Source: Candidatus Poribacteria bacterium (GTDB lineage Bacteria > Poribacteria > WGA-4E > WGA-3G). From it: DNA of 64,000 bases. Below are positions 4,741-63,440 of the stretch, one piece after another. Position 1 is the first letter of the stretch. The number at the start of each line of letters is the position of its first letter. The notes below the pieces were generated by a model, which was not told where the DNA came from, ran no database searches, and saw nothing but the letters and a program-made list of their open reading frames with translations. Location of the stretch: positions 3,513,838 to 3,577,837 of the forward strand of contig OZ251518.1 of the NCBI GenBank assembly GCA_965242965.1, written 5' to 3'. A program made the translations under genes and the position numbers.

Positions 4741-5160
4741 ACATCCCGGTAGGAGAGACCTCCCGGTCTCGATGCCGCGGTGGGCTTATTTTCTCGTGCA
4801 GGCGTGCCTTATCTTGACCTGTTCGGGTGCAGGCGCACCCGAACTATAGGGCTTGGGTGCGCGCCGCCTGTAGTTCAGGAGCGCCTGCTCCTGAATTGGT
4901 TGTGCTAGGCGATTGCAAACGACAGCGGGTGTCTCAATGTTTTCCCGATACGAAAAATCGAGACCGGGAGGTCTCTCCTACGGGGACATCGCTTGCATCG
5001 AGATCAGGAGGTCTCTCCTACAAGGACATCGCTTGCTCGGTATTCACCCCCAATCGGGATAAATACCGAAACGGATTTATGAAACACCCTCATTTTAGTC
5101 CCCGGTAGGCGCGCTTTGCAAGCGAGCCTACCGGGCCGGGGGAGGTTTTCAAGGATACGC
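4741..5160. repeat. composite intergenic repeat island (families A, D, E, F)
   Basis: Contains CCGGTAGGAGAGACCTCCCGGTCTCGATG, the palindrome GGTGCAGGCGCACCCGAACTATAG...CTGTAGTTCAGGAGCGCCTGCTCCTGAA, two GAGACCGGGAGGTCTCTCCTAC units, TTATGAAACACCCTCA and TAGGCGCGCTTTGCAAGCGAGCCTACC. Confidence 0.85.
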
Positions 5161-5170
5161 GGATTGGAGG

Positions 5171-5629
5171 CTAGAGAATCTCGACAACAGCTCCTAGAAC
5201 TTCCAAGCGTTCCTTTATTTCCGCAGCGGCTTCGCGACTGATTCCCTCTTGGATAATGACAGGGGCAGATTCAACCTTTTCCTTTGCTTCCTTCAGGGAT
5301 AATCCGGTAATGTCACTAACGACGACAATCACGTCCGCCTTTTGATGGGATTTGCCTAAACTTTCTAGGGTAACCCCATATCCTTCGCGAGAGATCTCCT
5401 CTCTTTGGACGGTAGGACCTGTCGTTTCTCCTACGATAGGATCCCTCCTTTCTTCAGCATCCTTTTTTTCACTCGGGTGCTGCTGAAGTTTGTCCAAGCT
5501 TTGCGCAATTCTCCGAAGATCTTCCGCGATGCTCTTCAGATGCACCCGCATCCCATAGAGGCTGCTGACGATGAGGATAACGATAATGATATGGATAAGG
5601 ACGGCGATGAGATAGACTACTTCAACCAT
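5171..5629 (-). CDS. membrane-anchored protein with a ribosomal bL12 (L7/L12) C-terminal-domain-like module
   Basis: N-terminal hydrophobic helix VVYLIAVLIHIIIVILIVSSLY. C-terminus DVIVVVSDITGLSLKEAKEKVESAPVIIQEGISREAAAEIKERLEVLGAVVEIL closely matches the bL12 CTD consensus (...[50 protein letters not shown]). Its start overlaps the upstream DUF433 gene by 8 nt. Confidence 0.7.
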   Translation of the reverse strand: MVEVVYLIAVLIHIIIVILIVSSLYGMRVHLKSIAEDLRRIAQSLDKLQQHPSEKKDAEERRDPIVGETTGPTVQREEISREGYGVTLESLGKSHQKADVIVVVSDITGLSLKEAKEKVESAPVIIQEGISREAAAEIKERLEVLGAVVEIL

Positions 5630-5837
5630 TGCAATTTGCCTCCTTTCGTTGGGCTGCGAAACCGAGGGCGGCCCGAATACCTTCCTCAGTTAAGCGCGGA
5701 TGCGCCTCAAGCAGCTGCTCGAACGTTTCGCCGGCTGATAACTTCTCCAAAATTAATTCAACCGTAAGTCGCGTGCCGGCGATAACCGGCTTCCCCATCA
5801 TGATTGAGGGGTTGGATTGTATCAATTGAGTTGTCAT
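5622..5837 (-). CDS. DUF433-family small protein (antitoxin-like)
   Basis: MTTQLIQSNPSIMMGKPVIAGTRLTVELILEKLSAGETFEQLLEAHPRLTEEGIRAAL matches the DUF433 pattern. ATG at 5837 with GAGGT 7 nt upstream; the longer ORF to 5894 lacks an RBS. Confidence 0.7.
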   Translation of the reverse strand: MTTQLIQSNPSIMMGKPVIAGTRLTVELILEKLSAGETFEQLLEAHPRLTEEGIRAALGFAAQRKEANCNG

Positions 5838-5875
5838 GTTCAGACCTCGGGTTTTTGATTTGGTGTTGTGAGGTG

Positions 5876-6682
5876 CTACCACCGCACCTGACAAAACTCT
5901 TCATAATCAATAAGTTTGTCAATCGTCGGATTTGCGCCGCACATCGGACAATTCTCATCGTGACGGAGTTTCAATCGCTTGAAATCCATCGTCAGCGCGT
6001 TGAAAAGCAGCAGACTGCCGATGAGCGGTTCACCGATGTTGAGCAGCACCTTAATCGCTTCAACGGCTTGAATCGTGCCGATGATGCCGGGCAACACGCC
6101 GAAAACCCCTGCCTCTTGGCAGCTCGGCACCATCCCCGGCGGCGGGGGTTCCGGATAAAGGCACCGATAGCACGGCCCTTTGCCCGGATAAAAGACAGTT
6201 ACCTGTCCCTCAAATTGGAAGATGCTCCCGTGCACGATAGGTTTACCTAACATCACGGAGGCATCGTTGAGGAGATATCGCGTCGGCAAGTTATCGCAGC
6301 CGTCCACAATCAACTCGTATTGCTCCAAAATGCGGAAGGCATTTTCAGAGGTGATGCGTTCGTTATGCGGAATCACCTTGACATCAGGGTTCATCTCGGT
6401 AATAGTAGCTGCGGCAGACTGCGTTTTCGGGATGCCGATATCGCTGGTGCCGTGCAAAATCTGCCGTTGCAAATTGCTCCTATCTACGACATCGTCATCA
6501 ATGATACCCAGCGTGCCGACACCTGCCGCCGCCAGATACACACCCACCGGTGAGCCGAGTCCACCTGCACCGATGAGAAGCACTTTTGATTCAAGCAGGC
6601 GCGTCTGCCCCATCCCGCCTACTTCTTTGAGGATGATATGCCGACTATACCGCTCAATCTGTTCGTTGCTGAAGTTAAACAT
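5876..6682 (-). CDS. moeB: MoeB/ThiF-family E1-like adenylyltransferase
   Basis: YSRHIILKEVGGMGQTRLLESKVLLIGAGGLGSPV nucleotide-binding motif and C-terminal CxxC...CPMCG zinc motif; ~268 aa. Confidence 0.85.
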   Translation of the reverse strand: MFNFSNEQIERYSRHIILKEVGGMGQTRLLESKVLLIGAGGLGSPVGVYLAAAGVGTLGIIDDDVVDRSNLQRQILHGTSDIGIPKTQSAAATITEMNPDVKVIPHNERITSENAFRILEQYELIVDGCDNLPTRYLLNDASVMLGKPIVHGSIFQFEGQVTVFYPGKGPCYRCLYPEPPPPGMVPSCQEAGVFGVLPGIIGTIQAVEAIKVLLNIGEPLIGSLLLFNALTMDFKRLKLRHDENCPMCGANPTIDKLIDYEEFCQVRW

Positions 6683-6722
6683 TTTTTGTTGTTCCTATCG
6701 GATGAGTCAATCGGTTAAATTG

Positions 6723-7018
6723 AGGGTGTTTCATAACTCGCCCAACGTCGCGAGGACAGTCACCGGTGCTGCGGTAAAAAAACGCCGCTCCTTCACGTAG
6801 GGCGTGGGCCCTCGCATGCCACACGCGCATGCGAGCGGGTTTCCCTCGCCATGCGTTTGGCTGTCAGACCGCATCCCCTCTGTAGGTCAGGATCGCCTGA
6901 TCCTGACTCGTTTGTGATCAGGCGATCACAAACTACAGAGGTGGGCCCAATGCCTGCCGGTATTCGCCCTCCCTCCAAGGGCGGAATAAATACCGAAACG
7001 GTGTTATGAAACACCCTC
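6723..7018. repeat. repeat island bracketed by inverted TGAGGGTGTTTCATAA copies
   Basis: Left end GAGGGTGTTTCATAACTCG at 6723-6745 and right end TTATGAAACACCCTCAG at 7002-7018 in opposite orientation; interior holds the family-D palindrome CTCTGTAGGTCAGGATCGCCTGATCCTGAC...GATCACAAACTACAGAGG. Confidence 0.8.
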
Positions 7019-7020
7019 AG

Positions 7021-7599
7021 TTAACCGGTTAAATTGGCGCGGAGCTCCGAAAGCGGTTTATCGGAATTCGCGGAAATCCGAAGAGCGAACCGTTCGCGCG
7101 CGTCCTCCGAAGTCCGTTTCACCGTAAAAGCATCGTTGCCATACATCTGCTGCAGCACGGGAGTGAGAACTGCCTGGAGGGTATCCGCTGTCGCCTGCGT
7201 ATTCGGCGCGAGATTGCGGTTGTTCACCATAAATAGGAGATTCGCGCCGCTGAAATGCACGGCATCTTCCAATTCGGCGGACGCTTCCAACTGTTCGCAT
7301 TTGGACAGTACTTCCGCAAGTGCCTGGCGAATCTTTTCGGCGTTGTCGCCTTTGACGGCGTGCTTCCGGTTGTAGAGGAAGCCCGGCTGATGCCACGCGT
7401 TGTCAATGCTGTAGTTAGCGCGCTTGGAAATCAGCAGCACGCCCGGTCCCGCGTCGACATGCGAATAATCGGCGTAGTTGAGATAGTCATCTTGCTCACC
7501 TTCGTCCATCCAGCGGTTGAAAACCTTGATGAAGTCGGTGTAGTTGATACGGCTGTCTTCGGTGGTAAACACCTTGATATTAATCTGTTGTAAATCCAT
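7021..7599 (-). CDS. hypothetical protein
   Basis: 192-aa ORF with no recognisable motif; two direct copies of CGCATTGCGAA(A/C)A(G/A)ACAAAAA lie immediately upstream of its ATG (7600-7645). Confidence 0.55.
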   Translation of the reverse strand: MDLQQINIKVFTTEDSRINYTDFIKVFNRWMDEGEQDDYLNYADYSHVDAGPGVLLISKRANYSIDNAWHQPGFLYNRKHAVKGDNAEKIRQALAEVLSKCEQLEASAELEDAVHFSGANLLFMVNNRNLAPNTQATADTLQAVLTPVLQQMYGNDAFTVKRTSEDARERFALRISANSDKPLSELRANLTG

Positions 7600-7689
7600 T
7601 TTTTGTCTTTCGCAATGCGGTTTTTGTTGTTCGCAATGCGTTCGGCTACGTCTTTTGTTGTCTGACGTTTCCTTACGTTAGAGGGCTCT

Positions 7690-7780
7690 CCTACTGGGAG
7701 GAGTCGAGACCGGGAGGTCCCTCCTACCAAGGCAGGAGTCGAGACCGGGAGGTCTCTCCTACCCAGAGGGTATTGAGATT
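7690..7780. repeat. three tandem family-A hairpin units (GAGACCGGGAGGTC(T/C)CTCCTACC)
   Basis: Seen directly at 7694-7720, 7727-7750 and 7752-7776. Confidence 0.8.
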
Positions 7781-7928
7781 CTGTCATCGACTATTGACGT
7801 TGTCGATGGTTGTCGATGCCTCGTTTTCTGGTGCTAATTGCTACCAGTCGTGAAAGTGTGAAAAAACTCGTTAGGCGCGGCGTTGCAAACGCGCGTGTTC
7901 CTCGTGAAAATAGGCTCGGTTGATTCCT

Positions 7929-8174
7929 TTAGGCTATCCCCAGTTCGCTCACGTTTTGCCCATCAACGCTGACAACGGTGACTTCCGCTGAGGGTAGCCA
8001 GAAAATCTGCCCATTGTTGTCACAGATACAAACCATTGCGTATTCGCCTGCGTCTACGTTGGCGAGAAAATTGCCCAAAAAAGCGTTCGGTGCCGCCGAC
8101 TTATAGGCACCAAAACCGGTGCCGAGCAAACAGTAACGTTTGCCGGTTCGCACGTATTCCACGATTGTTGCCAT
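7929..8174 (-). CDS. hypothetical small protein
   Basis: 81-aa ORF; a plausible promoter TTGCAC-N17-TAAACT and GATTGCGAAAGACAG x2 direct repeats (8338-8367) lie upstream. Confidence 0.45.
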   Translation of the reverse strand: MATIVEYVRTGKRYCLLGTGFGAYKSAAPNAFLGNFLANVDAGEYAMVCICDNNGQIFWLPSAEVTVVSVDGQNVSELGIA

Positions 8175-8389
8175 CTGTTCTTCCTTCGTAGGCGCGCTTT
8201 GTCATCGCGCTTCCCAAATGGGCGTTTTAGGAATTCGCGTCCAGTTTGGACGTTATTAGTTTAACACAAACCGTAATCTCGTGCAAGCGATTTTCATTCT
8301 CGCTAGAAAACCGCCGTCCCTCTGTCGCGCGAGTGCCTGTCTTTCGCAATCCTGTCTTTCGCAATCCTGCCTGGCGCAATCTCGTTCCG

Positions 8390-9406
8390 TTACTGAACCT
8401 CCTCATTCGCGCGCTTCACCAACGCATTCATGTAGGCGATGGTATACGCGGTGCCAACGCGAGAATCGCCAGCCATGCTCGGAATGTGGTCTGGAATCAT
8501 CACGCCGTTGAAGTTCACCTCTCGAAGAACCTTCGCAACCTGATACATATCCTGATAGCCGTTGTCGACGAACGTCTCCACGAAGTGCGGGAGCGGCTGA
8601 TCTACGTTGCGGAAATGCACCTTGAAAATCTTGCCGCGTTCGCCGAAGTATCGGATAGATTCAATGACATCTTTGCCCATCAATTCGCCGCCTTCGAGCC
8701 AGCAGCCGACGCAGAAGCACATCCCGACGTTCGGGCTATCCGCAATCTCAAGCGCGCGTTTGTAGCCCTCGAAACTGCTGAAAATGCATCGCGGAATGCC
8801 GGCGAGATGCACTGCCGGCGGATCATCGGGATGGATGCCTATCATCACGCCTGCCTCCTCGGCGACAGGCGCGGCTTCCTTGATGAAGTGCGCGTAGTTA
8901 TCCCACAACTCCGCCTCGCTGAATTCGCGTCCGTGCGAAAGCGGCATCGGGTAGGTATTACCACCCCAGTGTCCCTCTTGCGCGGTTTCCAGATTGAACG
9001 CCCGCGCGCTTGCACCGCCACGCGTCGTCTCGCGCGCAGTGCTCCAAATGCCGTTGCCCATGTGCGCATACGTCGTGTAGGGAATCCCGGCTTTGCCCAA
9101 GTCGCGAATATACCGCTTATACTGCTCAAGTTTGGCATCGCGATTCGCTAGGTTCAACACGATGCTGTCCTGATTATGGACATCGCTGTTGCCGAATCCA
9201 TAAATTTTCAGACCGGCGTTCTCGAAAATCTCGCGGCGGCTCATGAAATAGTCGTAATTTGCATTCGCGCCGTTCGTCCACAGCACCACGTAATCAACAT
9301 CCATCTGCTTAGCAAATTGCAAGTCTTCCGGGGTTGGCTCCGGCGACATCTGCGCCGTGACTTTGATGCCGGGTTCAATGTTTTGTAACGGGTTTTGTGT
9401 TGCCAT
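8390..9406 (-). CDS. uxuA: mannonate dehydratase
   Basis: UxuA-like TIM-barrel sequence (…YFGERGKIFKVHFRNVDQPLPHFVETFVDNGYQDMYQVAKVLREVNFNGVMIPDH…). Start set at ATG 9406 with GGAGG 9 nt upstream; the ORF extension to 9439 lacks an RBS. Confidence 0.8.
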   Translation of the reverse strand: MATQNPLQNIEPGIKVTAQMSPEPTPEDLQFAKQMDVDYVVLWTNGANANYDYFMSRREIFENAGLKIYGFGNSDVHNQDSIVLNLANRDAKLEQYKRYIRDLGKAGIPYTTYAHMGNGIWSTARETTRGGASARAFNLETAQEGHWGGNTYPMPLSHGREFSEAELWDNYAHFIKEAAPVAEEAGVMIGIHPDDPPAVHLAGIPRCIFSSFEGYKRALEIADSPNVGMCFCVGCWLEGGELMGKDVIESIRYFGERGKIFKVHFRNVDQPLPHFVETFVDNGYQDMYQVAKVLREVNFNGVMIPDHIPSMAGDSRVGTAYTIAYMNALVKRANEEVQ

Positions 9407-9439
9407 TTTACGGTTCCTCCGTGAGCGGTGGTTTGTCAT

Positions 9440-9905
9440 ACTGGAAGTGAGGGTGTTTCATAAATCCCCGTAGGAGAGACCTCCCGGTCTCGATGCAATA
9501 GAGCGGCGAGCCTACCGGGGCGGCGGCAGAAAGCCCCTTCATCGTAGGGCGAGGGCCTGTCCCTCGCCATCGTCGGCGCAATCCAACGCTCGCGGGGGAC
9601 AGGCCCCCGCACTACAAAAAACGTCTCTTAGGTCCGTAGGACCTTAATGTCTATAGCATGCGCGAACGCGAAGAATCCTAAGGTCCTTTAGGTCCTTAAT
9701 AGTTTTTGACATGCGGCGCGTTTTTTATTAAGGACCTAAAGGACCTTGAAAACGTAACGACACGTGTATCTATAGACATGTAGGTCCTAAAGGACCTAAA
9801 ACGTCCCCTCTTGACGCTGGCCAACGCGGGGCCTGTCCCCCGCGCTACGGGAACATCGAGACCAGGAGGTCTCTCCTACGGGGAGCCCTCGCCTTACGGG
9901 CACAG
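9440..9905. repeat. composite repeat island (E, A, B, C, B, A)
   Basis: TGAGGGTGTTTCATAAATCC, CCGTAGGAGAGACCTCCCGGTCTCGATG, REP-like CGTAGGGCGAGGGCCTGTCCCTCGCCATCG / CGCGGGGGACAGGCCCCCGCACTAC, and a full C element. Confidence 0.85.
9616..9803. repeat. C element copy 1: ~190-bp palindromic MITE-like element with 8 AGGTCC/GGACCT hexamers
   Basis: AGGTCCGTAGGACCTTAATGTCTATAGCA ... CTAAGGTCCTTTAGGTCCTTAATA ... TATTAAGGACCTAAAGGACCTTGAAAAC ... TATAGACATGTAGGTCCTAAAGGACCTAAAACG; left and right ~75-nt arms are near-perfect reverse complements. Confidence 0.85.
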
Positions 9906-9909
9906 GCAT

Positions 9910-11307
9910 TTATTCCTCATCCTTTGCCTCTGCCTTCAGCCGATACAGTTCTGCTGTGAGTTCGGTGACGATGTCGGCATATCTCGGGTCAGCGTAGACG
10001 TTGCGCATTTCGCTCGGGTCCTTCTCCAGATCGAAGAGTTCCCATTCCGGCTGTTTCGATTCATCAACGGAGCCTGTCGTGCCGAGTGCTTCGCCGTAGT
10101 AATAGATGAGTTTATACCGATGCGTGCGGATGCCGTAGTGCGCGCCGACATAGTGGTGCGAGAGGTGCATCCAATAGCGGTAATACATGGCGGTTCGCCA
10201 GTCGTCCGGAGACTCGCCGTTAAGTAACGGACGAAGGCTGCGTCCCTGCATATCGTCAGGAATTGGGAGCCCGGCGTAATCGAGCCATGTCTCGGCGAAG
10301 TCAATGTTCAACGCCATTGCATCGCAAGAACTCCCCGGCTGAATTTCGCGCGGGTATCGGACGATGAAGGGCATCCGCAACGATTCTTCATACATGAACC
10401 GTTTGTCATACCACCCGTGGTCCCCCAAGAAAAAGCCCTGGTCGGACGTGTAGATGACTATCGTGTCATCGGCGATACCGTCGGCATCGAGATAGTCAAG
10501 CATCCTGCCGACGTTGTCATCAATTGAGGCGACGCAGCGGAGATATTCCTTCATATAACGTTGATATTGCCACTTCGCCAGTTCTTCCTCTGACAACCCA
10601 TCCGGCGGCGGACCGAGTGTGTCAAATTTCAGGTCGCGGGCGTTCATATCGCGTGCCACCCGCATTTTCGCCTCCTTCGCGGCGTTTGAGCGATTGGCGT
10701 AATCGTCAAAGAAGGTGTCAGGAAGCGGCACATCCTCGTTTTCAAACAGATGCGCGTGCTTCTCATCTGAATCCCACGGACGATGCGGTGCCTTGTGATG
10801 ACACATCAGGAAAAAAGGGCTTTCCCTGTCCCGATGCTGCAGCCATTCCAATGAGAAATCGGTGATGATATCCGTGGCGTAACCTTTATGCCTTTTCTCG
10901 CCGTCTGAATCCAGCATCACCGGATCGTGATAGAGTCCCTGTCCGGGCAAAACGTTCCAATAGTCGAATCCAGTTGGATCTGCGTTACCGCCGTGTCCGA
11001 GGTGCCATTTGCCTACCATTGCCGTTTGATAACCGGCTGCCTGTAGCATCTTCGCGACGTTCGGTTTTCTGCCATCAAGTTTGTCTGCCAGCGTTTTGAC
11101 CCCGTTGAGGTGGCTATGTTTCCCTGTCAAGATGTTTGCGCGGCTCGGCGTGCAGATAGAGTTGACACAGAAGCAGTTACGGAGGAGCATGCCGCCATCG
11201 GCGATGCGATCCAGTTGCGGGGTTTGGTTGATGCGACTTCCGTAGCAACTCATCGCGTGAGCCGCATGGTCATCGGACATGATAAATAGGATGTTCGGAG
11301 TGCTCAA
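9910..11307 (-). CDS. sulfatase (formylglycine-dependent, arylsulfatase family)
   Basis: ILFIMSDDH and the CTPSRANILTGKHSH C-x-P-x-R signature. The ORF start is TTG at 11307 with GGAG 5 nt upstream. Confidence 0.85.
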   Translation of the reverse strand: MSTPNILFIMSDDHAAHAMSCYGSRINQTPQLDRIADGGMLLRNCFCVNSICTPSRANILTGKHSHLNGVKTLADKLDGRKPNVAKMLQAAGYQTAMVGKWHLGHGGNADPTGFDYWNVLPGQGLYHDPVMLDSDGEKRHKGYATDIITDFSLEWLQHRDRESPFFLMCHHKAPHRPWDSDEKHAHLFENEDVPLPDTFFDDYANRSNAAKEAKMRVARDMNARDLKFDTLGPPPDGLSEEELAKWQYQRYMKEYLRCVASIDDNVGRMLDYLDADGIADDTIVIYTSDQGFFLGDHGWYDKRFMYEESLRMPFIVRYPREIQPGSSCDAMALNIDFAETWLDYAGLPIPDDMQGRSLRPLLNGESPDDWRTAMYYRYWMHLSHHYVGAHYGIRTHRYKLIYYYGEALGTTGSVDESKQPEWELFDLEKDPSEMRNVYADPRYADIVTELTAELYRLKAEAKDEE

Positions 11308-11309
11308 TA

Positions 11310-12540
11310 TAATCTCCTTTTCCGGTAGGAGAGACCTCCCGGTCTCGATGCTCTTTAGTAGGAGAACCCTCCCGTTCTCGTTTTCCGGTAGGAGAGACCT
11401 CCCGGTCTCGATGCGTGACTCTGCCTTTTCATGATTAACAGCCCTATTAGTGAATAGACGGCCAATTTATAGTAAGTTTATCAGAAAGTGTCAGAATTGT
11501 CAAATTCGTTCAACAATTTCCAAAAAACTTTAGGATGCATCAGCGTAACGAGCACCAAAAATCCCGCGAGAGCTCTGATAGAAAATTTATCCGCTGGGGC
11601 ACGTTTCCGCACATGTAGAAATTGAGTATACCATAAAATCGTTGGAATGGCAAATCTTTTTTCTTCACCAGAGCGATTCAGTTCTTCCCAGTAGGTGCGC
11701 CTTCCCAATCTTGATTTCTGGTAGGAGAGACCTCCTGGTCTCGATTACCGTAGGGCGTGGGCCTGTGCCTCGCCGGGGTATCGCGCGCGGAGCGATCGCG
11801 GGGGACAGGCCCCGCGCTACGGTAACAGGTCATCTTCTTCACAAAACGTCCCCTCATCGTAGGGCGAGGGCCTGTCCCTCGCCATGCTTCGATCTACCGA
11901 ATGATCGCGTGGGCCTGTCCCCCGCGCTACGGTAGGCGGATTATCTTCTTCACAAAACGCCCCCCTTCACCGTAGGGCGTGGGCCTGTCCCTCGCCGGGG
12001 TATCGCGCGCGGAGCGATCGCGGGGGACAGGCCCCCGCGCTACGGTGAAAAAAATGCCTCCTCTTCACGTAGGGCGTGGGCCTGTCCCTCGCCATGCTCC
12101 GATCTACTGAATGATCGCGGGGGACAGGCCCCCGCGCTACGGTAACGGGCTATCTTCTTCACAAAACGCCCTCATCATCGTAGGGCGAGGGCCTGTCCCT
12201 CGCCATGTCTCGGGTTACCGAATGATCGCGTGGGCCTGTCCCCCGCGCTACGGTGAAAAAAATGCCTCCTCTTTACGTAGGGCGAGGGACAGGCCCTCGC
12301 CGCTGGATCCTGACTCGTTCGGGATCAGGCAATCCCGAACTACAGAGTTAGAGTGCGCGCCGCCTAGTTCAGGAGTGTGCATCGAGACCAGGAGGTCTCT
12401 CCTACTGGGGGAGTCGAGACCGGGAGGTCTCGCCTACGCGTCGGGGTAGGAGGGACATCCTTGTCCCGATACGAAAAATCGAGACCGGGAGGTTTCTCCT
12501 ACGGTGGTGCATCGAGACCAGGAGGTCTCTCCTACCGGAT
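11310..12540. repeat. 1.2-kb repeat island: A hairpins x3, ~97-bp tandem REP/BIME-like array, D palindrome, A hairpins x5
   Basis: Seen directly. ORFs 11642..11935, 12111..12449 and 12402..12614 are artefacts of it. Confidence 0.9.
11735..12310. repeat. tandem array (~6 units, ~97-bp period) of paired GC-rich palindromes
   Basis: Unit CCGTAGGGCGAGGGCCTGTCCCTCGCCATGC-N~20-ATCGCGGGGGACAGGCCCCCGCGCTACGG-N~30 (TATCTTCTTCACAAAACGCC...). The inter-repeat segments are themselves conserved, so this is not a CRISPR. Confidence 0.85.
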
Positions 12541-13962
12541 TCAGGATTGAGTAGCTGTCCGCAAGATAGTCCGATCTGCAGTCCAATTATCCCGATACCA
12601 TGTGCATGTCTCAAACGTATCGTTGAGTGCCGCCATGCGTGCTTTCAACATCTCGCGGAGAGCATCTCGGAGAGATGTCGATGTAGGTTCACTAATGAGA
12701 TTGTGCATTTGGAACGGATCTGCGACGTTATCAAAGAGTTTCTCGCTGCCATCGGCGCGGTGAACGGCGTAGGTATGCTGCTTCGTCCGCAATGCGCGCC
12801 ACTCATACCCATCCTCCCACTTCGCCGTGCAGCCCATGCCTTGCATAAACGCGGCATCCGGTTCATCGGTTTGGGCACGGTTTCCTTGCGCCGCGGGCCC
12901 TAAATCTGTTCCTTCTACCTCATCAGGAATCGGCAGATGCATGAGTGAGAGGAGCGTCGGCATGATGTCAGGCGTATTCAGGCAGGCATCCGAGACATGT
13001 CCTGCGGGAATATGCCCCGGCCATCGGATGAGGAATGGGATGCGCACTGCTTCTTCATAAAAAATGTTTTTCGCGCGGCGGCCCTGCGCACCGAACATCT
13101 CACCGTGGTCGGACGTGAAAACGAAGAGGGTGTTATCGCGCAGTCCAAGTTCATCGATTGCGCACAGCAACCTGCCGAGTTGCCTATCCAAATTCGTCGT
13201 CATAGCGTAATAGACGCGCATCCATTCGGGTAATTTGCGACGTTCTGTGGGGAACATCTGGGCCCACGTGTCGCCGAGTGGGTCATTTTCGGCGCGGTAG
13301 TTGGGCGGCAGCGGGAAGTTGACATCTCGGAATAGTTCATAATCGGCGGCAGGGACGTTGTCTTGTGTCCACGGGTCATGCGGTGTGCCGATGGAGAGGA
13401 AGAGCGCGAACGGCTTCTCATGCGATGCTTCTCGCAATGCCGCGATTGCCATATCGGTTTGCCCCTCCGGTTCATAGCCGGGGAGCGGAATCTTCTCAGG
13501 CGAGTTTCTGTGGTAATACGCGTCAAAATAGCGGTGATGGAAATTGTAAGCCGCCCAGTCTCCATCAAAACCGAGCCGATGCGGGCCTGGCGGGATGTAG
13601 GAATTCCTCGGGTCATCGTGATTTCCGAGTTGATTTGCCCACAAGTGCCATTTGCCGATATAGTGCGTCTGGTAGCCATTTCGATGCAAGACGTGCCCGA
13701 GGCAGTCATGGTTTGGGTTCATCCGGAGTTCGTTAATCGCCATGCCGGTACTGCTGGCATATTTCCCCGTGAAAAGTGAGGCGCGGTAGGGCGCGCACAT
13801 CGGGCTTCCGGAGACAGCGTTGCAGAAGTTCACGCCTTCTGTGGAGAGTCTATCCATATTCGGCGTGCGCGCTTTTGCATCGCCGGCATAGCCGCACGAT
13901 TGATACCGGAGCTGATCGGCGAAGACATAAACGAGGTTCGGTTGGGTTTGTGAGGTTGACAT
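12541..13962 (-). CDS. sulfatase (formylglycine-dependent)
   Basis: LVYVFADQLRY and the CAPYRASLFTGKY signature; ATG at 13962. Confidence 0.85.
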   Translation of the reverse strand: MSTSQTQPNLVYVFADQLRYQSCGYAGDAKARTPNMDRLSTEGVNFCNAVSGSPMCAPYRASLFTGKYASSTGMAINELRMNPNHDCLGHVLHRNGYQTHYIGKWHLWANQLGNHDDPRNSYIPPGPHRLGFDGDWAAYNFHHRYFDAYYHRNSPEKIPLPGYEPEGQTDMAIAALREASHEKPFALFLSIGTPHDPWTQDNVPAADYELFRDVNFPLPPNYRAENDPLGDTWAQMFPTERRKLPEWMRVYYAMTTNLDRQLGRLLCAIDELGLRDNTLFVFTSDHGEMFGAQGRRAKNIFYEEAVRIPFLIRWPGHIPAGHVSDACLNTPDIMPTLLSLMHLPIPDEVEGTDLGPAAQGNRAQTDEPDAAFMQGMGCTAKWEDGYEWRALRTKQHTYAVHRADGSEKLFDNVADPFQMHNLISEPTSTSLRDALREMLKARMAALNDTFETCTWYRDNWTADRTILRTATQS

Positions 13963-14039
13963 ATTGGTGCCTCGTCATCCAGAAAATCTTGTTCTATTTT
14001 AGCATGAAAAGTCAAAAACGTGCGGATAAAAAAAGGAGG

Positions 14040-55512: not shown

Positions 55513-55529
55513 ATTTATGTTCCAATAAT

Positions 55530-55745
55530 GGCGAGGGACAGGCAGGCATTGGGCCCACCTCTGTAGTTCGGGAGCGCCCGATCCCGAACGGGTCAAGATC
55601 GCTTGGCAAACATGCCAGAGCTTCAGACGATCTTGACCTACAGGGGTGAGGCGTTCTGAACACCAAAACGCATGGCGAGGGACAGGCCCTCGCCCTACGA
55701 TAGAGAAGATGTCTCCGGTAGGAGAGACCTCCTGGTCTCGATGCC
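55530..55745. repeat. repeat island (B half, D palindrome, B, A)
   Basis: GGCGAGGGACAGGCAGGC..., CTCTGTAGTTCGGGAGCGCCCGATCCCGAACGGGTCAAGATCG...GATCTTGACCTACAGGGGTG, GGCGAGGGACAGGCCCTCGCCCTACG, CCGGTAGGAGAGACCTCCTGGTCTCGATG. Confidence 0.85.
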
Positions 55746-55757
55746 TCGATGCCTCCC

Positions 55758-56543
55758 TCACGAAGATAACCGGGCCAATGCCGCCTGCTCCTCTTTTTGC
55801 CATGGACGGTGCGCCGGTGTCTCCAATTTCTTCGGCGGACCGCCGAAGACGAGGATGTATGCACGCCGTTCTCGCGCGGTGCTATTCGGCGCGGCGTAAT
55901 GTAACGTGCGGCAGTGATGGAACGTCGCACCACCCGCGGGAATCGGGCATGCGACTGCCTCGGACGTATCCACATCGTCCGTGACTAAGCCGTGAACGAG
56001 CGGGTCATTGTCAATATGCCGATGCCACCGAACCTCACCTTTGTGGGATTTCGGAATGAATTGGAGGCACCCGCTCTCCACCGTCGCCGTGTCAAGCGGC
56101 AGCCAGACGCTGAGGCTGTGCGGCAAGACTTCGGGATTCCAATACGCTTCGTCTTGATGCCACGGGGTTTCATTGCCGTAATGCGCAGGCTTCAAGATCA
56201 TGTGTCCACCACCGCTAACCTTTTCCGAGTCTACGCTGAGTAGCGTGGCGGCGAGTCGGTGCGCGTTTTGGAAGTAAATCGTCTCGCGGAGCACTGGGAA
56301 TTGCGCCTCCGGTCCGAGCACTTGCGGCAACGTTTCGCGTCCCTTGTGTGCACGCGGACCGGCGAGATCGAAGTAGCGTCCCTCCGCCTCGCCGGTGCGT
56401 TCCGTGAAAAGTTCATCGTAGATGCCCTTTAGGAATTCGACCTCTTCATCTGTCGTGATGCGAGGGATGCTGAGGTAGCCGTTCGCTTGGAAAAAGGCGA
56501 TTTGTTCGTCGGTCACTTCAGCGTGGAAGTTGTTAGATTTCAT
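55758..56543 (-). CDS. phytanoyl-CoA dioxygenase (PhyH) family oxygenase
   Basis: WHQDEAYW...H...H pattern; ~260 aa. Confidence 0.75.
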   Translation of the reverse strand: MKSNNFHAEVTDEQIAFFQANGYLSIPRITTDEEVEFLKGIYDELFTERTGEAEGRYFDLAGPRAHKGRETLPQVLGPEAQFPVLRETIYFQNAHRLAATLLSVDSEKVSGGGHMILKPAHYGNETPWHQDEAYWNPEVLPHSLSVWLPLDTATVESGCLQFIPKSHKGEVRWHRHIDNDPLVHGLVTDDVDTSEAVACPIPAGGATFHHCRTLHYAAPNSTARERRAYILVFGGPPKKLETPAHRPWQKEEQAALARLSS

Positions 56544-58326: not shown

Positions 58327-58407
58327 TGTTTTCTCCGTGATTGTTTTGATATTTTTATTATAGCATGCAGGTGGGTTTTGTGTCAAAGATTAAATGATGC
58401 TAGTTAA

Positions 58408-58975
58408 TTGAGGGTGTTTTATAACTCGCTCAACGTTGCGGTGACAGGCCCCGCGCTACGGTAAAAAAACGCCTCTCCTTTACGTAGGGCGAGGGCCTGT
58501 CCCTCGCCATGCAGCGATCGCGGGGGACAGGCCCCCGCGCTACGGGAAAAAACGGCACTTCACCGTAGGGCGAGGGCCTGTCCCTCGCCATGCCACATGT
58601 GCATGCGAGCGGGTTTCCCTCGCCATCGTTCGCTCGCCGGAAAAAACGTCTCTTGTTCTCTTCAGGTCCGTAGGACCTTAATGTCTATAGCACGCGCGCC
58701 TGCAAAGAACGCTAAGGTCCTTTAGGTCCTTAATAACTTTTGCCATGCGGCGCGTGTTTTTTATTAAGGACCTAAAGGACCTTGAAAACAGCGCGACACG
58801 TGTTTCTATAGACATTAAGGACCTAAAGGACCTAAAACGCCACTGTTTGACGATAGAGATCGCGGGGGACAGGCCCCCGCGCTACGATAAAAGACGGTTC
58901 TTGAGAAAACGCGGGGGACAGGCCCCCGCGCTACGGGAACATCGAGACCAGGAGGTCTCTCCTACCGGACAATGG
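58408..58975. repeat. repeat island (E, B pairs x3, C copy 7, B x3, A)
   Basis: ATTGAGGGTGTTTTATAACTCGCTCAACGTTGCGGTGACAGG at the left end; C element at 58641..58842. Confidence 0.9.
58641..58842. repeat. C element copy 7
   Basis: AAAAAACGTCTCTTGTTCTCTTCAGGTCCGTAGGACCTTAATGTCTATAGCACGCGCG...TATTAAGGACCTAAAGGACCTTGAAAAC...TATAGACATTAAGGACCTAAAGGACCTAAAACGCCAC. Confidence 0.85.
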
Positions 58976-60654: not shown

Positions 60655-61330
60655 GTTTAACAACAGTAGGAGAGACCTCCCGGTCTCGATTTCTTCGGGT
60701 AGGAGAGACCTCCCGGTCTCGATGTTCCCGTAGCGCGTGGGCCCTCGGATGCCACACGCGCATCCGAGCGGGTTTCCCCCGCGATGGCTCAAGAACCGTT
60801 TTTTTTTCGTAGCGCGGGGGCCTGTCCCCCGCGATCTCCATCGACAAGAGATGACGTTTTAGGTCCTTTAGGACCTACATGTCTATAGAAACACGTGCCG
60901 GTCCCACGGCAAGGTCCTTTAGGTCCTTAATAAAAAACGCGCCGCATGGCAAAGCCTATTAAGGACCTAAAGGACCTTAGCATTCTTCGCGTCTGTGCGT
61001 GCTATAGACATTCAGGTCCTACAGACCTGAAGAGAACAAGAGACGTTTTTTCCGTAGCGTGAACGATGGCGAGGGACAGGCCCTCGCCCTACGATGAAGG
61101 GGGACCTTCTGCCGCCGCGGCTCTGGTAGGCGCGCTGCCCTATTGCATCGAGACCAGGAGGTCTCGCCTACCGGGGAAACGGAAGCGTTTGAGGTTTCAC
61201 GAAACCATTTTTGACAACAACGAGTTATGAAACACCCTCATTTAACGCTCGCGGGGGACAGGCCCCCGCGCTACGGTATCATTGAGAGATGCTTGTGGGG
61301 GACAGGCCCCCGCGCTACGGTATCATTGCA
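60655..61330. repeat. repeat island (A x2, B x2, C copy 8 inverted, B, A, E, B2 x2)
   Basis: Seen directly; ORFs 60571..60792 and 60629..60847 are artefacts. Confidence 0.9.
60853..61050. repeat. C element copy 8 (opposite orientation)
   Basis: GACGTTTTAGGTCCTTTAGGACCTACATGTCTATAGAAACACGTG...TATTAAGGACCTAAAGGACCTTAGCATTC...TATAGACATTCAGGTCCTACAGACCTGAAGAGAACAAGAGACGTTTTTT. Confidence 0.85.
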
Positions 61331-61383: not shown

Positions 61384-61413
61384 CTTTCGCGATGTGATAC
61401 AATACATTAGCGA
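61384..61413 (+). promoter_or_regulatory. sigma70-like promoter TTGACA-N18-TACAAT
   Basis: TTGACATTATCTTTCGCGATGTGATACAAT, ~35 nt upstream of the RBS and ATG of the 61447 gene. Confidence 0.55.
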
Positions 61414-61446
61414 CGCTGTCCCAGTAAGACCACTTAATAGGAGGAA

Positions 61447-63060
61447 ATGATGCGAACGTTTGAAACCCGAGGCCCTGTGAATCCCGAAAAGAATTACGTT
61501 GTTCGCCGAGAAGGAGAGTTGGCGGATTTCATCTGGCGCGTGAAAGAGGGCCGCTATATCGTCATTTTCGCGCCGCGGCAGACAGGCAAGACGACCTTTT
61601 TCCGCGCCGCTCTCCAAACTCTCGCAGCGGAAGAACCTACCTATTTTCCGATCGAACTGAATTTCCAGGTGTATAAAAACGTCGCGCCGGATGCATTCTA
61701 CGGCCGCGTTTACAGAAAGATTCGTCAGGAAATTGAGGGCGTTTTCCACCAGCGCGGGCAGCCGCTGTCTGATGCGCTAAGTCAATTTTTGGGGAACGGC
61801 TCGGTGCATGATCATCTTTCGCTGCTAGACTTCTTTGAGAACCTCGGAGGCCTCCTAGCACCGCATCGGGTTGTGCTCATCATTGACGAGTTTGATGGCA
61901 TCCCATCCGCCGCCGTGAGCGATTTTCTGTATGCACTCCGTGACATCTATCACTCCAAGGCGGCTACTTCCTGTCCCTATAGCGTGGGCATTGTTGGGGT
62001 CAAAAACATTACGCAATTGAACTATGACAGGTCCATTTCGCCGTTCAATGTCCAAGATGAGTTTGGTTTGCCGAACTTCACGGTTGCACAGGTGGCGGAG
62101 CTCTTTGGACAATATACGTCAGAAGTCTGGCAGTCGTTCGCGCCAGAGGTTATTCAGACACTGCATCGGCAGACAGGTGGCCAACCGTTCCTTGTCAATC
62201 GACTTGCGCAAATGCTCACGGAGGAAATGGATATTCCAAATTCGGAGCCAATTGCGATGACGCACTTCGCATCCGCACATCGGCAACTCCTTGAAGAAAG
62301 GAACGTCAACATCACACACCTGACTACCAATATCCGCAGGAATCCGCGCTTTCAACGCCGCCTGATGCAAATTACCTCCTACGATGAAAGCATCGGCTTC
62401 AATCTAGATGACGACATCCTTAGTGAACTTGCCACCTACGGTGTCATCGTGAGAGGCGAGGACGGTATGTGTGAGATTGCCAACCCGATTTATCTCTACC
62501 GTATCCTACAAACGTTCCAACCGCTAATAAACGGACTTGAGGAAGAATACTACCCGCAAGACACAGGCAACGGGTATCGCGATTATCTCACGCCGGCGGG
62601 ACAGATTCATATAGTCGGGCTGCTGGATAATTTCCGAGATTTCATTGCGCGCGCGGGGTTCCGCATCCTAGCAGTGCCGGAAACACCACGAGAATACGTT
62701 GGACAGTGCCTCTTGTTTGCCTATCTGGACCAGTTTGTTCGGCAGGTGCGCGGCACTATGCATCTAGAAGTGCAGACCGGGCGCGGCCGGGCAGATCTCG
62801 TCATTTTCCATCAAGGACAAAAACATATCGTGGAGACTAAACTCTGGCAAGGCGAAAAGAGTTATCAAGTTGGTAAAGCGCAACTGTTCGCCTATCTCAA
62901 ATTGGAAGCCGCGATGGAAGGCTACTATGTCGTCTTCGACCATCGCAGGCATCCTGTGCCGCGCGTGGAGACAGAGACGTTGGATGGGGTGACGCTTCGG
63001 AGTTACGTTATTCCGGTGGTGCAGGAGATGCCTTCTAGCGCGAGAATTGAAAACGCATAA
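61447..63060 (+). CDS. AAA-ATPase-like protein with a C-terminal PD-(D/E)xK nuclease-superfamily domain (PF09820/PF08011-like architecture)
   Basis: Walker A VIFAPRQTGKTTF, Walker B-like VLIIDEFD, and C-terminal ...GRGRADLVIFHQGQKHIVETKLW (D...E-T-K). Confidence 0.7.
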   Translation: MMRTFETRGPVNPEKNYVVRREGELADFIWRVKEGRYIVIFAPRQTGKTTFFRAALQTLAAEEPTYFPIELNFQVYKNVAPDAFYGRVYRKIRQEIEGVFHQRGQPLSDALSQFLGNGSVHDHLSLLDFFENLGGLLAPHRVVLIIDEFDGIPSAAVSDFLYALRDIYHSKAATSCPYSVGIVGVKNITQLNYDRSISPFNVQDEFGLPNFTVAQVAELFGQYTSEVWQSFAPEVIQTLHRQTGGQPFLVNRLAQMLTEEMDIPNSEPIAMTHFASAHRQLLEERNVNITHLTTNIRRNPRFQRRLMQITSYDESIGFNLDDDILSELATYGVIVRGEDGMCEIANPIYLYRILQTFQPLINGLEEEYYPQDTGNGYRDYLTPAGQIHIVGLLDNFRDFIARAGFRILAVPETPREYVGQCLLFAYLDQFVRQVRGTMHLEVQTGRGRADLVIFHQGQKHIVETKLWQGEKSYQVGKAQLFAYLKLEAAMEGYYVVFDHRRHPVPRVETETLDGVTLRSYVIPVVQEMPSSARIENA

Positions 63061-63064
63061 GCCT

Positions 63065-63440
63065 GGCGCGATACGCTCCCCGGTAGGAGAGTCCTCCCAG
63101 TCTTGATGCAATAGGGCGGCGCGCCTACCGGGGCCGCGGCAGCAGAAGGTCCCCCTTCATCGTAGGACGAGGGACAGGCCCTCGCCAGCGTCCGCGGAAT
63201 CCAACGCGCGCGGGGGACAGGCCCCCGCACTACGAAAAAAACGTCTCTTAGGTCCGTAGGACCTTAATGTCTATAGCACGCGCGCCCGCGAAGAAGCCTA
63301 AGGTCCTTTAGGTCCTTAATAGGTTTTGCCAGGGCCGCGCGTTTTGTTATTAAGGACCTAAAGGACCTTGAAAACGGGCCGACACGTGCTGCTATAGACA
63401 TGTAGGTCCTAAAGGACCTAAAACGTCCTCTTGGGGAGTG
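63065..63440. repeat. repeat island (A, B pairs, C copy 9 at 63235..63425)
   Basis: CCGGTAGGAGAGTCCTCCCAGTCTTGATG..., REP-like pair, AAAAAAACGTCTCTTAGGTCCGTAGGACCTTAATGTCTATAGCACGCGCG...TATAGACATGTAGGTCCTAAAGGACCTAAAACG. Confidence 0.9.

Follow-up and report, generated by a model that had tools for sequence, protein, structure and literature searches.

Intergenic repeat islands of a Candidatus Poribacteria genome as probable two-layer mobile DNA: GTAG-headed hairpins within E-ended MITEs

Repeat islands between the genes

The window, i.e., the whole 64,000-nucleotide stretch analysed, comes from Candidatus Poribacteria, a sponge symbiont, and the named homologues of its genes agree with this origin; a 26-mer of repeat family A gave matches in Poribacteria genomes only. 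Intergenic DNA amounts to 16.3 kb (25.5%), and 146 of the 147 recognised repeat modules lie between genes. By self-blastn, 11,690 of the 64,000 bases (18.3%) were repeat-covered, in about 24 islands of 100–1,300 bp, and 19 of the 24 spacers of at least 100 bp were occupied, in agreement with a previous sequence-only reading that gave about 20% repeats and at least 20 islands of 100–1200 bp in nearly all spacers. Three unoccupied spacers contain small real genes (DUF433, HicAB and ThiS). Since about 2 kb of the matches are a PD40 gene paralogue, the real repeat content is nearer to 15%. The spurious open reading frames encoding the peptides GRGPVPRH and AGDRPPRYG, also described before, are present in the repeats.

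Modules are given here by family, with arrowheads for orientation. A solo F unit (gTAGGCGCGCTTtgcAAGCGCGCCTA, GTAG/CTAC at both ends; 3760–3784) sits in the 39-bp spacer of convergent genes and overlaps the stop codon of gene 2419–3762, followed by an island at 4741–5170 (A> D< D> A< A< E< F>). The 299-bp E-E MITE at 6721–7019 consists, in order, of one E end, two B units tail to tail (one of them with a hairpin nested in its loop), D> D<, a unique hairpin and the second E. Its right end abuts the stop codon of gene 7021–7599, its flanks (GTTAAAT/GTTAACC) match at 5 of 7 positions, and its DNA fold is −88 kcal/mol (z = −10.9). Two tandem A units on the minus strand (7681–7788) have a degenerate F nearby (8189–8213), and the next island (9448–9891) reads E> A> B1> B2<, a long-hairpin element with G (9630–9800), B2i< A<. 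A plus-strand tandem array at 11313–11415 (A, variant GAGAAC/GTTCTC, A) immediately precedes the sulfatase gene, whose start is at 11307. The largest island (11684–12549) contains A>, ten alternating B1>/B2< with repeated linkers in a BIME-like arrangement, D<, and A< A< A'> A< A<.

The island at 14039–14332 (A> B1> B2< B1> B-long E<) lies in a spacer of 488 bp, against 150 bp in the orthologous spacer of L019, a relative at 87% protein identity. The only intragenic module is a plus-strand B-like REP (16734–16758) in a 5'-nucleotidase gene, where it falls in a stretch of about 15 additional in-frame aa relative to L019. At 17346–18216, a B array, B-long, a long-hairpin element (17727–17873), A<, D> D< and E< were found, with E and F ends overlapping the stop codon of gene 18213–19628. 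The island at 24868–25176 (B1i> B2i< B1> D> D< B2< A< E<) starts 1 nt past the stop codon of gene 25178–27088; it is missing from L019, whose orthologous spacer measures 108 bp and keeps the downstream promoter. Plus-strand E> A> A> (27668–27794) marks the edge of a 1.4-kb insertion, a PD40 gene copy, which splits a gene intact in the syntenic relative L025. A 213-bp E-E MITE (29248–29460; E> A> A> A> A'< E<) shows a perfect 7-bp target-site duplication, GTTTACC. The island at 30365–30860 (E> A> B1> B-long D> D< B2< A<) lost its second E in the window; it is kept in another relative, L027, and L025 has a smaller E-E element.

An island at 39806–40583 lies inside a split rRNA operon ((E-like)> A> B2> B1< D> D< B1>, long-hairpin element, B2< B1> A<), and the one downstream of the 16S gene (43190–43887) combines a pair of long-hairpin (G) elements with E> at 43478, one D> D< doublet and A>. 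Two plus-strand copies of another GTAG hairpin (GTAGGGTAAATGGGCGGATagagacATCCGCCC) flank an A unit at 44204–44327, and a solo minus-strand B2 REP (46644–46670) fills the 44-bp intercistronic spacer of CoxL-like and CoxS-like genes. The 561-bp E-E composite at 48180–48740 is a module-level palindrome (E> A> A> B2< B1> D> D< B1> B2< A< E<) that ends 1 nt from the stop codon of gene 48742–49290; its flanks match at 5 of 7 positions and its DNA fold reaches −187 kcal/mol (z = −15). Further islands lie at 50504–50886 (E> A>, then B2< B1> B2< B1> B2<), at 55538–55747 (D> B1< A>), which gives the open reading frame 54463–55803 a spurious 96-codon N-terminal extension, at 58403–58973 (E> B1> B2< B1>, long-hairpin element 58638–58815, B2< B2< A<), at 60659–61328 (A> A> B-long, B2>, long-hairpin element 60910–61054, B1< A< E< B2< B2<) and at 63076–63433 (A> B1i> B2<, long-hairpin element 63250–63401 plus G).

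Hairpin units and element ends

Families A, B1/B2, D and F, together with the new family G, are one unit type, a 5' GTAG head followed by a perfect hairpin. Of 658 hairpin sides, 172 have GTAG no more than 6 nt upstream, where 12.6 would be expected, and units with GTAG and a perfect hairpin number 98, about 94 of them in islands. The exact head is present in 39 of 41 A, 55 of 60 B and 17 of 18 D units. The core of A (GAGACCTCCCGGTCTC) gave 38 copies (0.05 expected), while B1 and B2 gave 66 and 54 strand-hits (0 expected); B1 and B2 cross-match on opposite strands, leaving 60 B modules once overlaps are resolved. D gave 8–11 hits with its previous consensus, or 18 monomers if variant stems are counted, and F gave 7 in the window. 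Extra families are a long-hairpin element of about 180–200 bp that includes G, and variant B units whose loop holds a further, nested hairpin.

The stems covary. D stems are 92.8% paired with double changes at 5 of 10 pairs, a level reached by 0 of 500 shuffles. The abundant B stem variants CGCGGGGG/CCCCCGCG (71 copies) and GGCGAGGG/CCCTCGCC (65), as well as CGCGAGGG/CCCTCGCG (23) and TGCGAGGG/CCCTCGCA, are all perfectly complementary, and the A variant GGGACA/TGTCCC is a compensated change. Units pair head to head or tail to tail as dimers, or are strung into tandem arrays and alternating, BIME-like ones, bearing out the previous description of B as REP/BIME-like. In 12 of 17 cases, 22 bp separate the B units of a head-head dimer; tail-tail dimers have spacers of 21–26 bp and D doublets of 1–3 bp; tandem A copies, as had been noted, are present with a period of 30–40 bp (mode 33).

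Since the GTAG head and hairpin are common to all, A, B, D, F and G are sub-families of one super-family and belong to the known GTAG-tagged REP/BIME/REPIN class, of which no earlier report in Poribacteria was found in the literature searched. Instead of the six families distinguished previously there are two layers, and A, B, D and F are not unrelated to each other.

Family E (TGAGGGTGTTTCATAA) had been placed among the palindromic families and does not belong there: it has neither a hairpin of its own nor a GTAG head. It is always the outermost module, pointing inward, and is the terminal inverted repeat of a MITE with a 7-bp target duplication. The inverted ends, (T)GAGGGTGTTTCATAA, are conserved over 16 nt between unrelated flanks. 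The 24-mer gave 6–7 hits, and the 15-mer core 18 copies at up to 3 mismatches. Fifteen inward-facing E-E pairs from the window and related assemblies were scored for 7-bp flanking direct repeats. Eight pairs match at 7/7, allowing a 1-nt offset at an end, two at 6/7 and five at 5/7, with null probabilities per pair of 0.00045, 0.0066 and 0.051, respectively. The smallest form, of about 230–300 bp (E, a pair of B units, a pair of D units, one unique hairpin, E), is a canonical layout common to L025 (9213–9446) and the window element at 6721–7019. When E-E elements are folded, their termini pair with each other (z = −11 to −15). Different islands share conserved linkers between modules, and many islands have only one recognisable E. 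The REP arrays thus ride inside E-bounded MITEs. The sequence-only reading had proposed that each island is, or once was, a separate insertable unit bounded by terminal inverted repeats; the perfect flanking repeats and the empty site described below directly support this, and the inverted E pairs it listed are exact at 6721/7019, 29248/29460 and 48180/48740.

Relatives and mobilising enzymes

Comparison of occupied and empty homologous spacers, proposed earlier as a check, revealed both presence/absence and turnover. L025 has an empty site at the position of element 29248–29460, also writable as a deletion between short TAAAC repeats, while L027 carries a 350-bp version there. Cargo differs at orthologous sites between the window, L025 and L027, and relatives at about 90–99% nucleotide identity over aligned blocks hold different cargo at the same sites. 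Against L022, whose sulfatase is 96% identical, island 11684–12549 shows whole-module indels, although a unique stretch embedded in it aligns almost without mismatch. Relatives at 81–87% protein identity have almost no repeats and lack islands in the same spacers. GTAG-hairpins per kb are 1.53 in the window, 3.5 in L022 and 0.9–1.6 in L023 and L024, against 0.33 in L019, 0.14 in L020 (81%) and 0.05 in L014.

Assembly error, which the previous reading named as what would undo it, is refuted as the source of the repeats. Many related public contigs are very short (500–1,000 bp), a sign that these repeats disturb assembly, but the same families and layouts recur in independent assemblies: the short-read scaffold L022, two long-read genomes closed into circles, with coverage of 203x and 228x (L023, L024, L029–L031), L025 and L027, one 2x long-read contig being included. 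The 3-kb Logan contig L026 (about 93% nucleotide identity) has two E ends, and some independent assemblies are 92–99% nucleotide-identical to the window across islands.

As reported before, no REP-associated tyrosine transposase gene was found in the window: neither a RAYT nor any other transposase was detected by Pfam on all open reading frames of at least 150 aa, and a RAYT/TIRYT profile, run on all frames of at least 50 aa, detected no RAYT. Since RAYTs are typically single-copy, their absence from 64 kb says little about the genome. The profile also found no RAYT/Y1 gene in about 340 kb of other Poribacteria loci, about 140 kb from repeat-rich relatives; as the expected yield for single-copy RAYTs was only about 0.2, this absence is uninformative. 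No autonomous insertion sequence with E ends was found, and a 1.2-kb E-E element in L023, considered as a holder of IS5-like transposase remnants, was unsupported by Pfam, blastp and tblastn.

Origin of the islands

The islands are probably (roughly three chances in four) two-layer non-autonomous mobile DNA, in which GTAG-hairpin REPs are packaged in E-ended MITEs. Its directly supported components are the unit structure, the conserved GTAG, covariation in the stems, the inverted ends with their target duplications, an empty site, turnover between strains and restriction to a lineage. The first layer consists of the REP units (A, B1/B2, D, F, G and loop-expanded B), each a short hairpin preceded at its 5' side by an unpaired GTAG. 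These would be mobilised by a RAYT-type HUH/Y1 transposase presumably encoded elsewhere in the genome. In the second layer, a DDE-type transposase, likewise presumably encoded elsewhere in the genome of about 5.7 Mb, would act in trans on E, and the MITE, its interior almost wholly REP dimers, would duplicate 7 bp of an AT-rich, TTAA-like target when inserting. Such targets would cluster at stop codons and immediately before start codons, which would explain why elements often begin 1 nt past a stop codon. Composite blocks, linkers included, would be copied into many spacers and remodelled in place by single REP gain or loss, array expansion and recombination between islands, which may be co-transcribed as highly structured 3'-UTR or intercistronic RNA. 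Some observations count against the two-layer reading: tandem head-to-tail A arrays are atypical for REPs, slippage or recombination could change arrays without a transposase, five of the 15 E-E pairs have flanks matching at only 5/7, the perfect ones need the 1-nt offset at an end, many islands have a single E, and neither a RAYT/Y1 gene nor an autonomous E-ended insertion sequence was found.

It is unlikely that mainly a host-selected function, rather than mobility, keeps the islands in place, whether as terminators, 3' hairpins that stabilise mRNA, binding sites for nucleoid proteins or gyrase, or small RNA genes. REPs in E. coli do have roles of this kind. The compensatory stem changes, the islands starting right past stop codons with the downstream promoter intact and the solo REP within the cox-like operon would fit, yet stem conservation is equally expected from a transposase that recognises the hairpin. 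Terminator-like sites are not enriched in the only region scanned, 4,500–24,400 (23 against 22.6 in shuffles), the repeats match no Rfam family, the target duplications show insertion, and both the island-free spacers at 81–87% protein identity and the differing content of close strains at a given site speak against it.

A pure REP/REPIN-RAYT system, with E as one more RAYT-associated inverted repeat, comparable to the TIRs of 'TIRtrons', and HUH/Y1 single-strand transposition moving all the elements, is a still weaker candidate. HUH/Y1 (IS200/IS605-type) transposition proceeds without target-site duplication, which the perfect 7-bp repeats at 8 of 15 E-E units contradict, and E lacks both hairpin and GTAG head. 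In its favour are the GTAG head on all hairpin families and the description by Di Nocera et al. 2013 (PMC3733652) of RAYT-like genes with long TIRs on both sides, forming repeat families of moderate abundance. Spread by slippage, unequal crossing-over and gene conversion among palindromes, with the target duplications as recombination scars, seems the least credible of these three. Many strain differences are unit-length indels within tandem or alternating arrays, the L025 site has its deletion reading, and islands coincide with rearrangements (PD40 duplication, gene deletions). However, slippage cannot seed one composite into dozens of unrelated spacers, and eight different 7-bp duplications lie exactly at E ends conserved over 16 nt between unrelated flanks.

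REPs and MITEs are both known kinds of element; their packaging, density and recent turnover are what is unusual here. As in bacterial MITEs (Correia/NEMIS of Neisseria, Nezha of cyanobacteria, ERIC, RUP), the E-E elements are non-coding, 200–900 bp long, with terminal inverted repeats and target-site duplication, gene-adjacent insertion, long hairpin folds and presence/absence polymorphism, but their interior is GTAG-REP dimers and highly variable between copies. The Correia target duplication is TA, whereas that found here is 7 bp.

The REP layer resembles GTAG-tagged REPs, BIMEs and SMAGs (Di Nocera, De Gregorio and Rocco 2013, PMC3733652, whose definition of the class is used here; Nunvar et al. 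2010, PMC2817692). Common features are 20–30 nt units with an unpaired 5' GTAG and a short loop on a GC-rich stem of 6–10 bp, the presence of several families in one genome with compensated sub-families, head-head and tail-tail dimers, heterodimers such as B1/B2, conserved head-head spacers, clusters, long-loop variants, and mostly extragenic location with rare in-frame intragenic copies. In the 2013 survey, Poribacteria fall outside the 8 phyla listed and head-to-tail tandem arrays, the main form of family A here, are rare; the density here is also far higher (about 15–18% of sequence, 1.5 units per kb), the units are packaged inside TIR/TSD elements and the associated RAYT is presumed. The window repeat sequences themselves had no match in the literature searched. 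Like REPIN-RAYT systems (Bertels and Rainey 2011, PMC3116915), the doublets consist of two inverted REPs with a short fixed spacer (22 bp in B, 1–3 bp in D), forming a longer hairpin as the replicating unit, and are lineage-specific and vertically inherited; unlike them, they are nested (A around B around D) within a MITE shell, and no flanked RAYT gene was found in the window or the 340 kb screened. In Pseudomonas putida and P. fluorescens, double inverted repeats are degenerate GTAG-1 units beside unrelated stem-loops that flank RAYT genes in hundreds of copies; the section of PMC3733652 on REPs and tyrosine transposases describes no target duplication for them. The E-bounded units differ from them in their 7-bp duplications and in carrying no gene, and share with them the hybrid of a GTAG REP and an unrelated terminal sequence, amplified as a unit.

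Repeat islands and their GTAG hairpin families

The window has a G+C content of 52–55%. It carries an rRNA operon and a cox-like operon, besides genes for sulfatases, for restriction-modification and for TPR, LRR and WD40 proteins. By self-comparison, repeats make up 18.3% of it (about 2 kb of this fraction being a gene paralogue), grouped in about 24 islands, all of them between long ORFs. Intergenic DNA represents 25.5% of the window, and 146 of the 147 assignable modules in the 64 kb are intergenic. Islands occupy 19 of the 24 spacers of at least 100 bp, and small real genes are present in three island-free spacers: a DUF433 protein gene (5631–5837), the HicA toxin and HicB antitoxin genes (32284–32466 and 32767–33018) and a ThiS gene. 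A DUF3368/UPF0175 pair lies at 48742–50419. All the repeat families named in the sequence-only reading were present, far above chance.

GTAG was found at most 6 nt upstream of the hairpin sides in 172 of 658 cases, against 12.6 expected, and 98 units consist of GTAG and a perfect stem of 6–11 bp with a loop of 3–8 nt. GTAG-tagged REPs are defined as units of 20–40 bp with a stem of 6–13 bp, a short loop and an unpaired GTAG at one end in more than 90% of members. The window repeats are likewise short palindromes with short loops and a conserved unpaired tag, mostly extragenic and of high copy number (147 modules in 64 kb), and they fall into sub-families whose stems carry different, but again complementary, residues. 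Exact heads occur in 39/41 copies of family A, 55/60 of B and 17/18 of D; F (3/4) and G (4/7) are too poorly represented for this to be judged. The families read GTAGGA-GAGACC-tccy-GGTCTC (A), GTAG-GGCGAGGG-cctgt-CCCTCGCC (B1), GTAG-CGCGGGGG-cctgt-CCCCCGCG (B2), GTA-GTTCGGGAGC-gccc-GCTCCCGAAC plus variants (D), G-TAGGCGCGCTT-tgc-AAGCGCGCCTA (F) and G-TAGGTCC-taaa-GGACCTA (G, new here).

Stem pairing is conserved across sequence variants. In D, 92.8% of cells are paired, with double changes in five of the ten pairs; this was reached by none of 500 shuffles, and slid controls collapse. The abundant B variants over all loci are each perfectly complementary, and the A variant GGGACA/TGTCCC is doubly compensated. 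This pattern indicates that the stems evolve by compensation, and the shared head that the hairpin families are one super-family rather than independent inventions. Masking of the known modules uncovered two further families: one with the B2 stem and a nested hairpin in its loop (CTCGGATGC-cacacgc-GCATCCGAG), at eight places, and a long-hairpin element of about 180–200 bp that contains G, in 8 copies. The latter is probably what had been named family C. F units are perfectly palindromic and carry GTAG/CTAC at either end; the copies at 3760–3784 and 18214–18239 overlap the stop codons of the genes 2419–3762 and 18213–19628, respectively. Since F-type units are the commonest GTAG hairpin in L019, the one repeat-poor relative with several, F may be the oldest family.

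The units are combined in dimers and clusters with characteristic spacers, head-head or tail-tail, as in BIMEs. B head-head heterodimers (B1>/B2<) have a 22 bp spacer in 12 of 17 cases and B tail-tail pairs one of 21–26 bp; B units also alternate in arrays joined by repeated linkers; the array at 11750–12305 has ten units. D occurs as head-head doublets (D>/D<) with 1–3 bp between the units, and the predicted fold of 6721–7019 pairs its doublet. The 60–70-nt family D palindrome of the earlier reading is such a doublet. The short spacers of the inverted B1>/B2< and D>/D< pairs would let both REPs of a pair fold into a single long hairpin, as in REPINs. A units are mostly arranged head-to-tail with a period of 33 bp. 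In CRISPR arrays, identical repeats alternate with unique spacers of about equal length, and cas genes usually lie close by; a CRISPR origin of the tandem A units was rejected on the basis of the 33-bp period, the 5–10 nt linkers that are themselves repeated and the number of units, at most 3–5. No cas genes were detected by Pfam on the window ORFs.

REPs and MITEs have usually been studied separately, in a few Proteobacteria, and GTAG REPs, BIMEs, REPINs and MITEs are all known kinds of element. A survey of GTAG-tagged REPs (Di Nocera et al. 2013, PMC3733652) detected them in Proteobacteria, Cyanobacteria, Chloroflexi and the PVC group, and the window units match the elements described there feature for feature (dimers, heterodimers, clusters and long-loop variants). 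In the literature searched, no match was found to the window repeat sequences, nor any report of such elements in Poribacteria, the matches listed for "palindromic" concerning CRISPR or general sponge microbiology (titles and abstracts).

Family E and the units it bounds

Family E, TGAGGGTGTTTCATAA (16 nt), has neither a hairpin nor a GTAG head. Its 18 copies in the 64 kb are each the outermost module of an island and point inward. In total, 15 inward-facing E-E pairs were collected, 3 in the window and 12 in relatives; the three inverted pairs reported in the sequence-only reading were recovered where it had placed them. The pairs provide the terminal inverted repeats expected of a MITE, and their flanks the target duplication: direct repeats agree at 7/7 positions in 8 of the 15 pairs, at 6/7 in 2 and at 5/7 in 5. 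For random pairs of window positions scored identically, P = 0.00045 (7/7), 0.0066 (6/7) and 0.051 (5/7). The perfect 7-bp repeats are GTTTACC (twice, at unrelated sites), ATTTTAT, TATTAAC, CTAAACT, GGTACAA, GTTACCT and CTTAATT. The AT-rich, TTAA-like nature of the duplicated targets accounts for the TTAA motif found before most E copies. It also explains why several elements start 1 nt after a TAA stop codon (7019, 25176 and 48740) or at a distance of a few tens of nucleotides before a start.

The pairs span 211–1,229 bp, and a sizeable ORF occurs only in the longest, so the units are small, lack a transposase and occur in multiple copies, as MITEs do. In the predicted folds of E-E units, the two termini pair with each other (z = −11 and −15). 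The longest pair, at 3526–4754 of the closed-genome locus L023, has its ends 1,229 bp apart and flanks agreeing at 5/7; it contains no REP modules and holds a 176-aa ORF (no Pfam match) and non-coding sequence. This unit could represent either a decayed parent element or a carrier of cargo. The idea of IS5-like remnants in this unit (GRPR and ADSGY motifs) was dropped: Pfam gave no support, and neither blastp against E. coli IS5, IS30, IS1 and rve proteins nor tblastn against plasmids returned anything significant.

A polymorphic site was found between the window and L025, a syntenic relative with blocks of about 92–99% nucleotide identity. Where the window and the related long-read contig L027 carry the E-E element 29248–29460, L025 reads ...CTCGTTAAAC directly followed by TCATGAAAAG..., as an empty site would. 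The junction is not a textbook single target duplication, the filled alleles having 15 extra bases on the left, and a deletion in L025 is a possible explanation of this imperfect fit. Either as an insertion or as the object of a deletion, the element behaves as a discrete unit bounded by E. Inverted ends, flanking duplications, size and polymorphism together identify family E, at the sequence level, as the end of a MITE. The earlier proposal that the islands are insertable units with terminal inverted repeats gains support from the E-E pairs, their 7-bp flanking repeats and the pairing of the termini in the folds.

Composite structure, turnover and candidate enzymes

Across genomes the smallest E-E units share one plan, in which a tail-tail pair of B, a head-head doublet of D and a unique hairpin follow one another between the two E ends, as at 9213–9446 of L025 (234 bp) and 6721–7019 of the window (299 bp). 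Larger islands are palindromic at the module level, such as 48180–48740, which reads E> A> A> B2< B1> D> D< B1> B2< A< E<. Since the inter-module linkers are conserved among islands, composite blocks were copied as units. One orthologous E-E site contains B-D-D in L025, A-B-D-D-B-BL in the window (BL being a loop-expanded B) and A-B-D-D-B-BL-B-BL in L027. In addition, the island 11308–12540 differs from its counterpart in the short-read scaffold L022 by single A units (32–33 bp), a B pair (about 150 bp) and a 560-bp composite, while a unique stretch inside it aligns almost without mismatch and the L022 sulfatase is 96% identical. These comparisons indicate that island content changes in place after insertion. 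Because close strains show differences of single units, natural variation allows MITE insertion, REP colonisation, array growth and recombination to be placed in order.

A more speculative reading, with a probability of about 0.3, is a hitherto undescribed composite mobile element in which a DDE-type MITE shell (E ends, 7-bp duplication) would enclose an interior made entirely of HUH-type GTAG-REP dimers. Two unrelated transposition systems would then amplify the same DNA, or else the MITE shell alone would spread the REPs with no RAYT. Such elements would make up about 15–20% of 5.7-Mb sponge-symbiont genomes and, since strains differ, would still be active. A load of this size, if true, would be one of the highest REP/MITE burdens known in bacteria. 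No description of a putative MITE with an interior of REP dimers, at about 15–18% of the sequence, was found in the literature searched. The uncultivated animal symbiont studied here carries both REPs and MITEs, and at extreme density.

Regarding the enzymes, a DDE-type transposase would act on E because a 7-bp duplication is present and HUH/Y1 enzymes, to our knowledge, make none. RAYT-type enzymes would act on the REPs, as the GTAG and hairpin signature suggests through the definition of the family. With E. coli RayT and a profile of 19 RAYT/TIRYT sequences (Di Nocera et al., Additional file 5) as queries, no RAYT/Y1 enzyme was found in the window ORFs or in about 340 kb of other Poribacteria loci (about 140 kb of it from repeat-rich relatives), where about 0.2 hits would be expected for a single-copy gene. 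Pfam gave no transposase of any type in the window, in agreement with the absence of RAYT noted earlier. Repeat-rich DNA was sampled with a spurious B-array ORF, which led to five loci from closed genomes; these yielded more E-E pairs and no transposase. The islands may have a host function, but as their primary reason it is argued against by several results: terminators were not enriched over shuffles in the 20-kb region scanned, the repeats had no Rfam match (only rRNA and tRNA were returned), relatives lack islands, and the islands vary from strain to strain. An assembly artefact was ruled out, since short-read, long-read and Logan assemblies agree.

Distribution in Poribacteria and effects on genes

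Using one genome for each of 185,579 species, the exact family A 26-mer was found only in Candidatus Poribacteria genomes, which are also the source of the named homologues of one window protein; the window thus belongs to a sponge-associated poribacterium. The density of GTAG-hairpins is 1.53 per kb in the window, 3.5 in L022 and 0.9–1.6 in the closed circular 5.7–5.8 Mb genomes of L023 and L024. It falls to 0.33 in the syntenic L019 (87% protein identity), 0.14 in the closed genome of L020 (81%) and 0.05 in L014, a 48% G+C relative. The L019 spacer orthologous to 24751–25177 is 108 bp long and island-free, with the downstream gene's promoter and ribosome-binding site preserved; at 87% protein identity, L019 spacers are too diverged for island junctions to be placed at base level. 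A, B and F also occur in other Poribacteria species, and E was found only in close relatives. The declining density and the restriction of E indicate a lineage-specific, recent repeat bloom. Confined as it is to one Poribacteria lineage, the bloom may be relevant to the effects of population size or host restriction on symbiont genome evolution.

The islands have practical consequences for the annotation and assembly of sponge-symbiont genomes. They create many false ORFs, and a search of public databases with one spurious ORF returned at least 225 such "proteins". The E repeat, as its reverse complement, also supplies spurious ORFs with ATG starts (MKHP...). ORF calls are distorted at 54463–55803, 43913–44300 and 18203–18424; the first 96 codons of ORF 54463–55803 are island sequence, its homologues aligning only from residue 97, and the ThiS-family gene 43913–44128 has a REP-derived N-terminal extension. 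Because many related contigs are only 500–1,000 bp long, the islands probably contribute to fragmenting short-read assemblies of these symbionts.

Islands also coincide with gene duplications, deletions and disruptions between strains. A 270-aa TSP3-repeat gene, intact at 11907–12719 of L025, is split in the window (27089–29180) into halves at 28907–29180 and 27089–27493. The halves are separated by a 1.4-kb insertion containing E> A> A> and a second copy of a PD40 beta-propeller gene (27843–28811), paralogous to 30891–32000. Only the signal-peptide codons of the neighbouring 355-aa gene of L025 are left in the window (a deletion of about 1.16 kb), and both changes lie at island borders. The 117-aa gene of L022 (4052–4405) is internally deleted at 11420–11700 of the window, where its 3' end and a promoter-like TTGCCA-17-TATACT remain in a large island. 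At 16692–16769, a B-type REP was found inside a 963-aa 5'-nucleotidase-like gene, within about 15 extra in-frame amino acids (...ERVNAHVARVPVPRD...) absent from the L019 orthologue; intragenic REPs of this kind are on record in other GTAG families.

The rRNA operon is split, at 33085–42719 on the minus strand. Its order on that strand is 16S (41169–42719), tRNA-Ile (40989–41062), a gap of about 4.5 kb, tRNA-Ala (36377–36452), 23S and 5S. The gap contains a repeat island, a Laminin_G_3 gene (38879–39712), a 723-aa WD40 gene (36904–39075) and a repeated 443-bp stretch (36467–36909). The independent long-read contig L027 matches 33049–39805 at 98.5%, covering the protein genes, tRNA-Ala, 23S and 5S, and ends short of tRNA-Ile and 16S.
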